Below, piece after piece: positions 4,249 to 14,578 of a stretch of 14,578 nucleotides of DNA (position 1 is its first letter; every line of letters begins with the position of its first letter). The notes under the pieces are model-generated. The model was not told where the DNA came from. It saw only the letters and a program-made list of their open reading frames with translations, and searched no databases. A program made the position numbers and the translations under genes. Origin of the DNA: a virus; UHGV virus genome UHGV-0349585; one strand, written 5' to 3'.

Positions 4249-4965
<717 letters not shown>

Positions 4966-5264
4966 AGAGGATAGATGGAGTTTAATGGCCATGAGTATCA
5001 AGCGGTCAAAAAGAAGCTCATCTATTCATTGAAAGCATAAGGCCATCTGAGTATATCCGTAATGATCTGGATATTGTCTATAACATCAATGACCGGACGA
5101 TAGATATCGGTGAGCAGCGTCCTGTATGGCAGGGTGAGGCAGGTGAAAAAACGTCCTGCCATCAACAAGAATCAAGTGCATCCGCTCTCTGGACAGATGG
5201 AAAATTTATTGGATGCAAAAAGATATGAAATAACACCTGTATAGCACGGAGCTTTCTCTGACCG

Positions 5265-5660
5265 ATGCACTTGAAGTTGTTAGGGCTGACCCAGCCTGCT
5301 GTTTCTTTAGAGCTTGCCGAGCGATACATCAACGCAACTGAGCCGAAGCCTAGCGACAGCAGCATTACTGCATATAAAAGCCGCATGGAAAGTGCAATCA
5401 AAAAGTTTGTAGCTTTCCAGTCTGGTGAAGAAATCCCATACACTCCGATTGACAAAGAATCCAGTGAGGAAAAAGATTTGACTGGCGAACCAACAAAAGT
5501 CGAAGGCAAGGCTAATGCACTTCATACCTATGATCTTCCAGTAGTTCTTCGACCTGAATCAGGGGTTACAGTAACGATTAAAGGCATTCCTAACGATATC
5601 ACAAACGAAGAAGCCGAACGCATCTCTTCAATTCTGAAGGTTTACGTTCGGCCTCAATAA
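5265..5660 (+). CDS. Hypothetical protein (131 aa) in the slot occupied by rexA/rexB in lambda
   Basis: Longest ORF between cI and the timm-like terminator, co-oriented with cI; acidic and Lys-rich composition; weak RBS; two antisense ORFs overlap it, so coding status is uncertain. Confidence 0.35.
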   Translation: MHLKLLGLTQPAVSLELAERYINATEPKPSDSSITAYKSRMESAIKKFVAFQSGEEIPYTPIDKESSEEKDLTGEPTKVEGKANALHTYDLPVVLRPESGVTVTIKGIPNDITNEEAERISSILKVYVRPQ

Positions 5661-5833
5661 TGCAAAAGCATTCAGCACAATGTCCAACTCCCCAGTCCGA
5701 CATTGATGCTGTTTAACCAGAGCCTCCAAAAGGAGCCCTTGTTAAGGTACACAATATTTGCGATGTAACCTTAGCGCGTCTGGTACATTTTTTCAAGCGG
5801 TTGTAGGGCTGCCGCCAATATGAGAAAACACAG

Positions 5834-5956
5834 ATGTCTACATACAATTTGAATGACCAATTCGATCGAGAAGTTCATGTGAATGCCTATGAACGGATAA
5901 GGCATGGAAATCTTGAACATGTGTGTGAGCATTATCGCTCAAGGCCACACCGCTAA
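5834..5956 (+). CDS. Small hypothetical ORF (40 aa) immediately upstream of the timm-like terminator
   Basis: My own translation MSTYNLNDQFDREVHVNAYERIRHGNLEHVCEHYRSRPHR; weak GAGA-type RBS; ends 5 nt before the terminator stem. Confidence 0.2.
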   Translation: MSTYNLNDQFDREVHVNAYERIRHGNLEHVCEHYRSRPHR

Positions 5957-5961
5957 TCATC

Positions 5962-5990
5962 AACCCGGCCTCCATGCCGGGTTTTCTTTT
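5962..5990 (+). terminator. Intrinsic terminator ending the cI operon (timm-like)
   Basis: CCCGGC/GCCGGG stem (5964-5981) with 6-nt loop followed by TTTTCTTTT. Confidence 0.6.
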
Positions 5991-6140
5991 CCTCTCGCCC
6001 CAAAAAAAACGCATAACCAATTGTATTTATTTCAAAATTAATAGATACAACTCACTAAACATCGCAATTCAGATCTCTCGATCACCTTCCCAATCCACAC
6101 AACCCTGCAAAAAATAAATCTATATAAAAAACATACAGAT

Positions 6141-6203
6141 AACCATCTGCGGTGATAAATTATCTCTGGCGGTGTTGACATAAATACCACTGGCGGTGAT
6201 ACT
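6141..6203 (+). promoter_or_regulatory. OL3-OL2-OL1 operators and pL promoter
   Basis: 17-bp operators at 6141-6157, 6161-6177, 6185-6201; -35 TTGACA (6175-6180); -10 GATACT (6198-6203). Confidence 0.9.
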
Positions 6204-6242
6204 AAGCACATCAGCAGGACGCACTGACCACCATGAAGGTGA

Positions 6243-6273
6243 CGCTCTTAAAAATTAAGCCCTGAAGAAGGGC
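6243..6273 (+). promoter_or_regulatory. nutL (boxA and boxB)
   Basis: boxA CGCTCTTA (6243-6250); boxB hairpin GCCCTGAAGAAGGGC (6259-6273). Confidence 0.85.
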
Positions 6274-6430
6274 AGCATTCAAAGCAGAAGGCTTTGGTGT
6301 GTGTGATACGAAACGAAGCATTGGCCGGAAGTGCGAATCCGGATTAGCTGCCAATGTGCCATTGCGGGGTGTTTTCGTTCAGGACTACGACTCCCACACA
6401 CAACCAAAGCTAACTGACAGGAGAATCCAG

Positions 6431-6757
6431 ATGGATGCACAAACACGCCGCCGCGAACGTCGCGCAGAGAAACAGGCTCAATGGAAAGCAGCAAATCCCC
6501 TGTTGGTTGGGGTAAGCGCAAAACCAGTTAACCGCCCTATTCTCTCGCTGAATCGCAAACCGAAATCACGAGTAGAAAGCGCACTGAATCCGATAGACCT
6601 TACAGTGCTGGCTGAATACCACGAACAGATTGAAAGCAACCTGCAACGTATTGAGCGCAAGAATCAGCGCACATGGTACAGCAAGCCACGCAGTGAAATG
6701 GGTGTGACTTGTGTTGGTCGCCAGAAAATGAAATTAGGCAGCAAACCACTTATTTGA
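6431..6757 (+). CDS. N: N antitermination protein (108 aa), lambda-like with a divergent C-terminus
   Basis: MDAQTRRRERRAEKQAQWKAANPLLVGVSAKPVNRPILSLNRKPK... with Arg-rich N-terminal motif; AGGAG RBS before ATG at 6431; ORF-track frame 6299-6757 is an upstream extension into the leader. Confidence 0.9.
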   Translation: MDAQTRRRERRAEKQAQWKAANPLLVGVSAKPVNRPILSLNRKPKSRVESALNPIDLTVLAEYHEQIESNLQRIERKNQRTWYSKPRSEMGVTCVGRQKMKLGSKPLI

Positions 6758-7278: not shown

Positions 7279-7340
7279 GGAGCAATGTCGCTCGTAACTA
7301 AACAGGAGCCGACTTGTTCTGATTATTGGAAATCTTCTTT

Positions 7341-7367
7341 GCCCTCCGGTGTGAGGGCAATTTTTTT
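7341..7367 (+). terminator. Intrinsic terminator between the AT-rich ORF and the coiled-coil gene
   Basis: GCCCTC/GAGGGC stem with 6-nt loop followed by AATTTTTTT. Confidence 0.6.
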
Positions 7368-7379
7368 GACGGAGGATAT

Positions 7380-12164: not shown

Positions 12165-12831
12165 TTACCAGGCACTGCGTGAGGCGGCAGTGAAAGCAAC
12201 GTGGGGAGACTGGGACTCATATAAACCACACCGTGGCGCACGTGGTTATGAGGTCCGACTAAGTAGTCAGGCCATTGCGCAACACGTTCTGAAAAACAAC
12301 GCTGAATTTATTGCTGCCTTTAATCCAAAGATTGCTTTGGCGCTACTGGATGAACGGGAAAGAAACCAGCAATACATCAAACGCCGCGACCAGGAGAACG
12401 AGGATATTGCACTAACGGTAGGGAGGCTGCGCGTTGAGCTTGAGGAAGTAAAACAACACGCTGAAGAATTATCCGAAACCAAGGCTGTTCGTAACCAATG
12501 GCGGCCAGATATTTGCCCAATAACCGGACGTGCATTTTTCATGTGGATTGAGCATCCAACATTGGGAAATGTGCCGACATATGGTGGCCCATTAGATAGT
12601 TACACCATTCCAACAAAGGACGGTGACGGTGAGTTTTCATGTGAGCGTTACGATCATGATTTTGGCGGTTGGGTAGAAAGCGAATGTCTTGGGTTATATC
12701 TGATTGATGATAGAGAACAATGCAGGGTCTACGAACTGGAGGAACGCGTTAAGGAACTGGATGCTCGGGAAATATCGCTCCCGGAACGTAGCAGCATGCT
12801 TCATCGAACAGATTTTCACGATGATTACTAA
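12151..12831 (+). CDS. Ead/Ea22-like family protein (226 aa), GTG start
   Basis: N-terminal YQALREAAVKATWGDWD and central coiled-coil are typical of Ea22-like proteins of lambdoid prophages; GGAGG RBS before GTG. Confidence 0.65.
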   Translation: MSEINYQALREAAVKATWGDWDSYKPHRGARGYEVRLSSQAIAQHVLKNNAEFIAAFNPKIALALLDERERNQQYIKRRDQENEDIALTVGRLRVELEEVKQHAEELSETKAVRNQWRPDICPITGRAFFMWIEHPTLGNVPTYGGPLDSYTIPTKDGDGEFSCERYDHDFGGWVESECLGLYLIDDREQCRVYELEERVKELDAREISLPERSSMLHRTDFHDDY

Positions 12832-12907
12832 ACGGTAATGGCATACAAAGTTTCTGAAGTCATCGCTGCAATCCGCGCCGCAGGCATTCGCATCAAAGGA
12901 GAGTGAT

Positions 12908-13504
12908 ATGAGCGCTATAACCAAAGAACGTATCGAATTATTCATTAAAAATCCGCTCGATAACGGACTTACCCGTGGCGAACAAATGGAACTTGCACGA
13001 ATTGCACTGGCATCGCTGGAAGCAGATCCAGTTGCTTATATTTTCAAACATCCGGCCGGGAAATTATTCTGGGCTTTAACGGATGAAAGCAATAAAGAGC
13101 AAGCGGACGTTATTCCTGTTTATGCCGCCCCTCCAGTGCCAGTAGTACCTGAAGAAAAACCAATGCCTAACCCTCTTAAAATGTACGCGGTCGATGCTGT
13201 TGCCGCTATTGCAGAGGTGAGAGGCTGGAATGCCTGCCGCGCCGCCATGCTTCAGGGTAAATCAGAACAACCACAAAACGCACAACAAAATATTCCGGAA
13301 AATTTTCCTGATGGCAACTATCCGGTAACTCCGGATGGTTGGGTTATGGTGCCCAAGGAGTTAACACCGGAAATGATGAGAGCCGTTCAGATTAGAAGTG
13401 AGCTTGGAGGGTATGCCACTTCCAATCTATCTGGTGCATACAATATGTTTTCTGAGTTCTGGAATGTTGCTGTCTCAGCTGCGCCTAAGGTGGATTATTT
13501 ATGA
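12908..13504 (+). CDS. Hypothetical protein (198 aa)
   Basis: AAGGAG RBS 7 nt upstream of ATG; Pro-rich central linker between two globular-looking halves. Confidence 0.6.
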   Translation: MSAITKERIELFIKNPLDNGLTRGEQMELARIALASLEADPVAYIFKHPAGKLFWALTDESNKEQADVIPVYAAPPVPVVPEEKPMPNPLKMYAVDAVAAIAEVRGWNACRAAMLQGKSEQPQNAQQNIPENFPDGNYPVTPDGWVMVPKELTPEMMRAVQIRSELGGYATSNLSGAYNMFSEFWNVAVSAAPKVDYL

Positions 13505-13803
13505 ATCTATATCGCTGCCCATTCTGTGGTTCCACTGTGCTTAACATCGGATACTCATTCAGTATCAGAGGGAAAATGCGCTATGTGTCATGCAAATGTG
13601 GTGCCAAAGGACCAGAAAAACGAACTAGATCTGAAGCGATTTCTTCATGGAATAGTCGAATGAAAGTATGGGTTTATGATCCAGAAACAATATTAAACGT
13701 TGAAGAGCGCAGGAGAACGGAAGTCTATATTCATAACCTTAATGAAGATGGATTTACACCAGTGCTTGTAAAGGCTACTCCGCAGGAGGTTAACCGTGGC
13801 TAA
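13501..13803 (+). CDS. Lar-family-like zinc-ribbon protein (100 aa), candidate restriction-alleviation factor
   Basis: N-terminal CPFCG...C.CG zinc ribbon followed by EAISSWNSR, resembling Lar-family proteins of Rac-like prophages; ATGA overlap with upstream gene. Confidence 0.55.
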   Translation: MNLYRCPFCGSTVLNIGYSFSIRGKMRYVSCKCGAKGPEKRTRSEAISSWNSRMKVWVYDPETILNVEERRRTEVYIHNLNEDGFTPVLVKATPQEVNRG

Positions 13804-14080
13804 CCTGCAACTTGCCGTTAAAGGTGAATACTTCGATGCCATGATTCGCGGAGAGAAAACGGAAGAGTATCGCCTGTGTAATGACTACTGGAATAAGCGA
13901 ATTCTGTTCCGCGAGTATGACCGCCTGATTATCACAAAGGGATATCCGAAGCGCGATGATTCCAGCCGCAGAATAGACGTCCCGTATGACGGATATGAAA
14001 TCAAGACAATCACGCATCCCCACTTCGGCGATAAACCGGTAAAGGTTTACGCGATAAAGGTAAATATCGGCAATGAATAA
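13796..14080 (+). CDS. ASCH/DUF3850-like small protein (94 aa), GTG start
   Basis: AGGAGG RBS 6 nt upstream of GTG; N-terminal ...AVKGEYFDAMIRGEKTEEYR... resembles the ASCH-like beta-barrel signature. Confidence 0.5.
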   Translation: MANLQLAVKGEYFDAMIRGEKTEEYRLCNDYWNKRILFREYDRLIITKGYPKRDDSSRRIDVPYDGYEIKTITHPHFGDKPVKVYAIKVNIGNE

Positions 14081-14084
14081 CAAT

Positions 14085-14110
14085 CCTCGCACTCGCGGGG
14101 ATTTCTTTTA
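14085..14110 (+). terminator. Possible intrinsic terminator after the ASCH-like gene
   Basis: CCTCGC/GCGGGG stem (one G-U pair) with 4-nt loop followed by ATTTCTTTTA. Confidence 0.4.
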
Positions 14111-14152
14111 TCTGAACTCGCTACGGCGAGTTTTGTTTTATGGAGATGATAA

Positions 14153-14320
14153 ATGCACTTCCGAGTCACAGGTGAATGGAATGGAGAGCCATTTGACAGG
14201 GTTATCGAAGCAGAGGACATCAACGACTGCTATAACCACTGGATGATATGGGCGCAGATAGCACATGCAGACATAACCAATATTCGAATTGAAGAACTGA
14301 AAGAACACAAAGCCGCCTGA
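14153..14320 (+). CDS. Small hypothetical protein (55 aa)
   Basis: GGAGA RBS 5 nt upstream of ATG; my own translation MHFRVTGEWNGEPFDRVIEAEDINDCYNHWMIWAQIAHADITNIRIEELKEHKAA; stop lies inside the next terminator. Confidence 0.4.
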   Translation: MHFRVTGEWNGEPFDRVIEAEDINDCYNHWMIWAQIAHADITNIRIEELKEHKAA

Positions 14321-14334
14321 TGGCGGTTTTTTAT
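14311..14334 (+). terminator. Intrinsic terminator upstream of the excisionase-like gene
   Basis: GCCGCC/GGCGGT stem with TGAT tetraloop followed by TTTTTTATT. Confidence 0.55.
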
Positions 14335-14377
14335 TGCCTGATTTGCAGGTTCGATTCCCTATTCGGAGATAGCACTC

Positions 14378-14578
14378 ATGCAACACGAACTACAGCCTGA
14401 TTCACTGGTTGATTTGAAATTCATCATGGCTGATACTGGCTTCGGTAAAACCTTCATCTATGACCGGATTAAGTCCGGAGACCAGCCTAAAGCCAAAGTT
14501 ATCCACGGGCGAGCAAGATGGTTATATCGTGACCATTGTGAATTCAAAAATAAGCTCTTAAGCCGCGCCAATGGGTAA
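14378..14578 (+). CDS. AlpA/excisionase-like helix-turn-helix protein (66 aa); likely Xis of the integration module
   Basis: ADTGFGKTFIYDRIKSGDQPKAKVIHGRARWLYRD matches the AlpA/Xis DNA-binding signature; sits at the distal end of the pL operon where xis-int lie in lambdoid phages. Confidence 0.6.
   Translation: MQHELQPDSLVDLKFIMADTGFGKTFIYDRIKSGDQPKAKVIHGRARWLYRDHCEFKNKLLSRANG

Follow-up and report, generated by a model that had tools for sequence, protein, structure and literature searches.

Near the end of the 14,578-nucleotide viral sequence analysed here (UHGV-0349585; hereafter the window), a 55-codon open reading frame is enclosed by terminator-like hairpins and followed by an excisionase-like gene. 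This arrangement raises the question of whether the frame and its hairpins make up an insulated, separately regulated unit, possibly tied to the control of excision, as a reading of the letters alone had suggested, or belong to a larger transcription unit. The coordinates of the features that bear on this question are collected in Table 1.

Table 1. The orf55 cassette, the gene that follows it and the upstream elements of the early leftward operon (positions in the window)
Feature	Position	Strand	Description
cI repressor gene	4252-4965	+	first in the listed order of the + strand early leftward operon
pL promoter	6175-6203	+	TTGACA/GATACT
nutL boxA	6243-6251	+	CGCTCTTAA
nutL boxB hairpin	6259-6273	+	GCCCTGAAGAAGGGC
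gene N	ATG 6432, end 6757	+	phrog_271 'anti-termination protein N-like'
whole mosaic cassette	14078-14337	+	two terminators, orf55, terminator; from alignments with lambda, 434, HK022 and HK140
hairpin 1 ('tL4')	14082-14110	+	9 bp stem (14082-14090/14095-14103), ACTC loop, TCTTTTA tail
hairpin 2	14114-14140	+	tandem with hairpin 1; 8 bp stem (14114-14121/14126-14133), TACG loop, TGTTTTA tail
Shine-Dalgarno GGAG	14142-14145	+	7 nt 5' of the orf55 ATG; direct sequence reading
orf55 (lambda lambdap35 homolog)	14153-14320	+	55 aa; ATG start, TGA stop 14318-14320
terminator 3	14309-14332	+	core CCGCC/GGCGG (14313-14317/14322-14326), extendable to 9 bp (14309-14330); T6 14327-14332
excisionase-like gene (TorI/HkaC type)	14378-14578	+	phrog_66; outside the cassette

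Three hairpins around a small gene

The sequence-only reading had placed a small frame with a good ribosome-binding site between an upstream terminator-like hairpin at 14085-14110 and a downstream terminator at 14311-14334 whose loop contains the stop codon. Frame, binding site and both hairpins are indeed present, with the boundaries given in Table 1; what had been overlooked is hairpin 2, which brings the number of hairpins to three in all. Hairpin 1, which begins 1 nt past the stop codon that ends the ASCH-like gene upstream, folds with −13.1 kcal/mol (z = −5.5 against 200 dinucleotide shuffles, as for the following values); hairpin 2, whose T-tail abuts the orf55 ribosome-binding site, folds with −11.9 kcal/mol (z = −4.8); and terminator 3, which holds the orf55 TGA in a TGAT loop and lies ~45 nt 5' of the start codon of the xis-like gene, folds with −13.9 kcal/mol (z = −3.4). 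None of the shuffles (0/200) folds as well as any of the three. Each hairpin consists of a GC-rich stem-loop followed by a T-rich tract on the transcribed strand, and a terminator scan of positions 12500-14578 returns 4 sites, against 1.8 ± 1.2 expected. These properties support the view that all three are genuine intrinsic terminators, at which transcription would be predicted to end, namely within 14104-14110, 14134-14140 and 14327-14332 (in lambda ~29330-29290 and ~29100); in the accessible literature, transcript-end data (Term-seq, S1 mapping) for these hairpins were not found, and the names tL4 and t3-t5 used there denote annotations or predictions. Read on the minus strand, terminator 3 is weak (z = −1.6, with a poor T-tail) and is therefore probably essentially unidirectional. 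Hairpins 1 and 2 do not appear to have arisen by tandem duplication, their best ungapped identity being 15/33, compared with 14-17/33 between hairpin 1 and unrelated terminators of the window.

Stem pairing is largely maintained across the 55 distinct full-length cassettes, in which most pairs are kept in 50-55 sequences (46-55 for the pairs of hairpin 1). The sole common polymorphism of hairpin 2, A/G at 14129, retains pairing with 14118 as either U-A or U-G, and double changes that preserve pairing are observed at 14084/14101 in hairpin 1 and at 14315/14324 in terminator 3, where G-C is replaced by U-A. Moreover, in loci whose mosaic joint falls within hairpin 1, the replacement sequence in most cases again gives a GC-rich stem before the common T-tail. 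With a divergence of only ~5% among the cassettes, and with stems about as diverse (0.03-0.04) as third codon positions (0.047), selection on the hairpins cannot be proven by conservation alone; the maintenance of pairing is supportive, rather than decisive, evidence that they may be constrained.

The orf55 gene and its protein

The start codon of orf55 is immediately preceded by an in-frame TAA, and the segment that carries its ribosome-binding site and spacer (14141-14152) shows no variation across 55 distinct cassettes. Of the 67 distinct cassette sequences, 65 carry the frame unbroken and in register; the exceptions are Sf6 and HK022, whose 1-nt deletion is compensated by an ATG further upstream. 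Its variable sites are distributed over codon positions 1, 2 and 3 in the ratio 11:2:22, with a mean pN/pS of 0.23; homologs with 40-55% identity are encoded by phages of Proteus and Morganella and by a phage from bat faeces (Tbat2_3); and the AlphaFold2 model of the product is confident (pLDDT 88.5), with a beta-beta-alpha-beta arrangement made of strands 2-9, 12-19 and 41-49 and a helix at 23-37. On this coding signature, orf55 is a real, conserved protein-coding gene. The same evidence leaves virtually no credence for the idea that the frame is not a gene and that the block owes its conservation to a structured RNA, an idea that could draw on the long fold of 14070-14345, which is more stable than its shuffles (z = −4.1), and on sub-threshold Rfam matches to sRNA-like families. 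These matches score far under the gathering scores (STnc420, 22.8 bits against 70; STnc130, 28 against 55; in addition to rsmX and Leu_leader) and were discarded as noise. An 82-aa antisense frame (14138-14386, minus strand) was likewise taken as spurious, because it runs across a mosaic joint into non-homologous DNA. Translation of orf55 is undocumented in the accessible literature, where the ribosome-profiling statement of PMC8614690 covers five conserved upstream ORFs.

A homolog search with the 55-aa protein, proposed as a check together with the original suggestion, identifies lambda orf55: the two products are 91% identical over 55/55 residues (lambda 29121-29285), and their five amino acid differences are mostly conservative. 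The window protein is similarly close to the copies found in 434, HK022, HK140, HK630, mEp phages, Stx phages and many P22-like coliphages. It matches phrog_676, a profile annotated as being of unknown function, over positions 1-55 of 55 (E = 5.8e-38), and searches of Pfam (E ≤ 0.1) and NCBIfam returned no family.

Comparison of the Orf55 model with the PDB using Foldseek places T7 Gp2 (4lk0_M) at the top, with E = 0.06, a TM-score of 0.56-0.59 and 23% identity, none of the matches reaching E ≤ 0.001; next come the Gp2-like RNAP epsilon subunit YkzG and the uracil-DNA-glycosylase inhibitor p56. Within the Foldseek viral library the matches, all of which have E > 0.001, are mostly uncharacterised small proteins, together with three annotated RNAP inhibitors of T7-like phages. 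In its predicted small beta-beta-alpha-beta fold, Orf55 resembles both Gp2 (4lk0, 4llg, 2wnm) and YkzG (4njc); a profile search of PDB sequences with Orf55 found neither a Gp2 chain at E ≤ 10 nor any other link to a solved structure. The likeness found here is the one described by Donaldson et al. 2021 (PMC8614690), who reported the resemblance of Orf55 to Gp2 together with a speculative model and assigned N43 and R45 as the equivalents of the two key arginines with which Gp2 contacts the beta' jaw. Unlike in T7 Gp2, one functionally important arginine is thus an Asn in Orf55; the position of the other, R45, is occupied by D, Q and Q in the Proteus, Morganella and Tbat2_3 homologs, respectively, and is not conserved. 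Judging from the predicted structure, the similarity of Orf55 to the Gp2 fold is weak. The lack of a match at the sequence level and the residues found at the two arginine positions count against placing Orf55 in the Gp2 family.

Gourse and co-workers (PMC9239242) cite earlier work in which orf73, ea22, ea8.5 and orf55 were jointly implicated in a block to the initiation of host replication. Because of the Gp2-like fold and of the location of the gene in this lambda region, our best guess, and a weak one, is that Orf55 may be a host-directed early protein. In a lambda CRISPRi screen (PMC10695390), knockdown of the tested pL-operon genes, with the exception of N, left plaque formation unimpaired; lambdap35 was not among the genes tested.

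A lambdoid cassette at mosaic joints

The arrangement is not new: by alignment, the frame and its flanking terminators are lambda's own orf55 cassette, each part of which had an earlier annotation or prediction. The sequences of hairpin 1, hairpin 2 and terminator 3 are those of t3, t4 and t5, respectively, which Bloch et al. 2014 (PMC4195576, Table 4) predicted in lambda with ARNold. In the record of phage 434 (M60848) the gene is named ORF55 and a terminator 't-L4' is placed just 5' of it; the HK022 record (X51962) has 'tL4' at a position that aligns with hairpin 1; and the HK140 record carries a rho-independent terminator annotated over the orf55 stop codon. In lambda, orf55 (lambdap35, J02459 complement 29118-29285) is part of a ~260 bp cassette that has at least 90% DNA identity with that of the window and the same two upstream hairpins, ribosome-binding site and terminator with the stop codon in its loop; it is located, moreover, at the end of the exo-xis region of the pL operon, under lambda pL/nutL/N. 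The neighbours differ, with ea8.5 upstream in lambda in place of the ASCH-like gene of the window, and lambda Xis downstream in place of a TorI/HkaC-type excisionase.

Identity of at least 90% with lambda, 434 and HK140 extends from ~14078 to ~14337, where it gives way to unrelated flanks, and the HK022 alignment ends at the same right-hand point. Breakpoints were compared in 86 loci, consisting of 80 from IMG/VR and 6 reference records; since the former are the closest 80 of 548, the IMG/VR sample is biased. In this collection (IMG/VR best 80 of 548), left breakpoints cluster at 14074-14078 in 45/85 loci, with smaller groups at 14098-14106 and at 14138, and right breakpoints cluster at 14332-14340 in 57/85, the other 28 loci sharing the xis gene of the window. 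The cassette is present in 2,664 of 5,426 complete E. coli genomes, which hold 4,062 copies in all and up to 8 each; being a known lambda cassette that occurs in about half of these genomes, it makes for a finding that is real but ordinary. An exhaustive phmmer search of 1.84 billion representatives with Orf55 returned only 51 clusters, many of which are chimeras sharing part of the protein.

In Sf6, only the last 16 codons of orf55 and terminator 3 remain, downstream of the stop codon that ends gene 19; the terminator has thus been kept with the xis module although the gene is reduced to a remnant. The Sf6 GenBank record also annotates bsq, or boundary sequences, short conserved stretches where mosaic modules meet, of which bsq2 starts right after terminator 3, just as the homology blocks of the window begin and end at hairpins. 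Unlike a bsq, the conserved block of the window is a complete functional unit of terminators and gene, and thus more than a short linker. The hairpins mark the edges of a ~260 bp homology block, where different accessory genes on its upstream side and different integration modules on its downstream side have been swapped among phages.

The gene that follows the cassette in the window had been called excisionase-like, and its product does match phrog_66, 'excisionase and transcriptional regulator' (E = 1.4e-7); it corresponds to gene 18 of Sf6, which is homologous to HkaC of HK620, and bears the RefSeq name 'response regulator inhibitor TorI'. Among 87 loci that contain the 3' end of the cassette (IMG/VR best 80 of 548), 85 have readable downstream sequence. 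Terminator 3 is directly followed by the TorI/HkaC-type xis of the window (phrog_66) in 30 of these loci, by lambda Xis (phrog_629) in 25, by a different phrog_66-type small HTH protein of the HK140_030 type in 9, by ORF114, another annotated terminator (t'-I) and then xis in 19, and by a small phrog_15342 protein of unknown function in 2. An excisionase-type gene therefore directly abuts the terminator in 64/85 sampled E. coli phage loci and is one gene removed in 19; at least two distinct families are represented, and the two phrog_66-type proteins are dissimilar.

In the Proteus, Morganella and Tbat2_3 phages, the genes for the distant Orf55 homologs belong to the early part of the leftward operon, with N, kil and cIII nearby and xis far away. 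Nor is the terminator bracket a family-wide trait, a stop-codon terminator being found in 1/3 distant homologs and a tandem pair directly 5' of the gene in 0/3; those of Proteus and Morganella are without flanking terminators. The proposed tie to excision accordingly survives in one form and fails in another. As excisionase-type genes so often lie directly after the last terminator, a role of the terminators in gating xis/int transcription is plausible; an intrinsic connection of the Orf55 protein with excision, in contrast, is not supported by where its distant homologs are encoded, and the gate idea is not required by the Orf55 family. By position, the cassette forms the border element before the integration module; this and the retention of terminator 3 in Sf6 would agree with a gate, with a favoured joint for recombination, or with the two combined.

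The cassette in the pL operon and rival readings

The stretch of the window that comprises oL, pL, nutL and N is ~98% identical to lambda, in an alignment that spans lambda's annotated nutL, and lies ~8 kb upstream of the cassette. The gene order from there is N, erf, ssb, nucleases, abc2, lar, the ASCH-like gene, the cassette and xis, with all intervening genes on the same strand. In the lambda pL operon, N-modified RNA polymerase reads through downstream intrinsic terminators; unmodified polymerase stops. Since lambda pL, nutL and N lie upstream of it, the cassette is part of an N-antiterminated operon, in agreement with the description of the exo-xis region as being transcribed from pL (PMC8614690, PMC4195576). 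No sigma-70-like promoter was found on the + strand of 12500-14578, including the interval from hairpin 2 to the ATG, where only ~12 nt separate the T-tail from the start codon. A 'pI'-like TTGC-N5-TTGC segment lies past terminator 3, at 14334-14362. Being part of an N-antiterminated operon and having no promoter of its own, the cassette is thus not the separately regulated unit that had been envisaged.

The region is probably the 'tL4-orf55' cassette of lambdoid phages, located distally in the N-antiterminated pL operon, with its terminators serving as an N-sensitive fail-safe gate. Transcription would start at pL and pass nutL, and N protein would render the polymerase resistant to termination. 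Polymerase without this modification would be stopped at the tandem terminators (14082-14140), after the accessory genes have been transcribed, and any that leaked through would be halted by the third terminator, on the stop codon of orf55. N-modified polymerase would pass all three, orf55 being translated from its own GGAG site, so that orf55 and the xis/int module would behave as N-dependent delayed-early genes. Most likely, then, the terminators stop unmodified polymerase, and expression of both orf55 and xis/int would need N; for these particular sites, we infer N-dependent read-through from established lambda biology. The terminators would act as a fail-safe gate before the excision genes, rather than as the borders of an independently regulated unit.

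An insulated unit under its own regulation, whose product controls excision, for example via the expression or activity of Xis and Int, would suit the tightness with which the terminators bracket the cassette and its consistent place, in the E. coli phages sampled, as the final element ahead of xis, next to at least two excisionase families. It is nevertheless very improbable, given both the lack of a promoter within the bracket and the surrounding N-antiterminated operon. In addition, the distant homologs are not near xis and most of them are unbracketed; 434 and HK022 have another gene and the annotated terminator t'-I between cassette and xis; Sf6 has lost most of orf55 and retains xis/int; and the unimpaired lambda plaques mentioned above, from knockdowns that did not include orf55, point in the same direction. 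Autonomy of another kind would be expected of a moron-like unit, from which Orf55 would be made in lysogens, starting at a weak or non-sigma-70 promoter and ending at terminator 3, to the benefit of the host. Like morons, which are autonomous promoter-gene-terminator insertions, the cassette joins a small accessory gene to a ribosome-binding site and a terminator that serve it alone and lies between unrelated genes in different phages, and it is very widespread in E. coli prophages. Unlike them, it is without a promoter of its own, has two terminators directly before its ribosome-binding site and resides in an early operon, in a region that the literature describes as early lytic and transcribed from pL. 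Since no upstream promoter-like site was found on the + strand and the few nucleotides after hairpin 2 are too little for a promoter, a moron is considered extremely improbable.

The hairpins could also be mainly recombination boundaries or linker sequences, with termination being incidental or negligible. The clustering of breakpoints at the foot of hairpin 1 and just past the T-run of terminator 3, the annotation of bsq2 immediately after the terminator in Sf6, and the many chimeric ORFs that share only part of orf55 all speak for a boundary role, which is compatible with termination and already included, next to it, in the best explanation. As a complete account it is quite improbable, however, because the hairpins have full terminator anatomy including T-tails, their polymorphisms keep pairing, with compensatory changes among them, and most of the non-homologous sequences that replace part of hairpin 1 pair into a stem ahead of the common T-tail; stems that are formed again after substitution are what would be expected of a selected terminator, and not of a mere patch of homology. 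A further-reaching proposal, which we consider rather unlikely, is that the cassette is a selected 'gate and junction' unit before the E. coli lambdoid integration module and that Orf55 is a Gp2-like RNAP-binding protein. Terminator 3 would then have been kept despite the decay of orf55, as in Sf6, making excisionase and integrase strictly dependent on antitermination, and Orf55 would bind the host RNA polymerase and aid either the block of host replication initiation or the balance between lysis and lysogeny.

In summary, the finding has little importance as a discovery, because orf55, tL4 and terminator 3 are lambda features that were already annotated or predicted. It identifies the window as distal pL operon from a phage that is a lambda-immunity hybrid, and points to Orf55 as a very widespread small early protein. 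If the terminators do gate xis/int, they would contribute to the safeguard that prevents prophage excision in the absence of induction.

Remnant, variant and chimeric copies of orf55

In Sf6, where a stretch of the locus (~2204–2268) aligns with window 14270–14337, all that remains of orf55, the homolog of lambda lambdap35, is its last 16 codons together with terminator 3, the hairpin bearing its stop codon, and this remnant is sited 3′ of the gene 19 stop codon. Even with orf55 destroyed, terminator 3 travels with the xis module. A variant copy is found in HK022 (2361–2540), in which orf55 carries a 1-nt deletion directly past the start codon; the frame is restored by an upstream ATG, equivalent to window position 14140, resulting in a 59-aa product annotated as HK022_33.

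Many of the database "homologs" of Orf55 are chimeric ORFs (P0044, P0046, P0050, P0053, P0063, P0065 and P0080) that have only its C-terminal half in common, their N-termini being unrelated; this pattern indicates that recombination joints inside orf55 have arisen recurrently. Two other matches, P0099 (763 aa) and P0101 (929 aa), each show nine repeated weak matches to Orf55 residues ~10–38, and are probably repeat proteins unrelated to it.

Sequences flanking the cassette

Directly past the T-run of terminator 3 lies a TTGC-N5-TTGC element (14334–14346), whose spacing is one base shorter than that of the lambda cII site, TTGC-N6-TTGC. The stretch matching window 14334–14362 is labeled "pI; possible integrase expression promoter" in the Sf6 record, and a consensus promoter scan gave no match at these positions. 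Upstream of the cassette, the Lar-family gene overlaps the start of the 94-aa phrog_625 gene by 8 nt; the latter is annotated as ASCH-domain in related phage records, and the Pfam ASCH match of the window protein falls below threshold.

Features of the window outside the cassette
Feature	Window position	Strand	Details
Immunity and early-control region	4252–6757		Lambda's own; encodes a cI-type repressor (237 aa)
Strong terminator-like hairpin	5962–5991	+	Just 5′ of pL, ending the stretch downstream of cI
Strong terminator-like hairpin	7339–7368	+	3′ of the first gene downstream of N
Lar-family restriction-alleviation gene	13501–13803		PF14354, E = 1.1e-8
94-aa gene	13796–14080		phrog_625

Hybrid make-up of the phage

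Within the immunity region, oL/pL, nutL and N share ~98% identity with lambda. This identity collapses over the final ~70 nt of N (~6690–6757), a pattern pointing to an internal mosaic joint at the 3′ end of the gene that would give its product a C-terminus differing from that of lambda N. The hairpin beyond the first gene downstream of N occupies the expected site of a tL1-like terminator.

In contrast to the lambda-type immunity region, the recombination genes are of P22/Sf6 type (erf, abc2); moreover, xis is of TorI/HkaC type. Given this combination of gene types, the window therefore derives from a lambdoid phage, or prophage, of hybrid make-up with lambda immunity.
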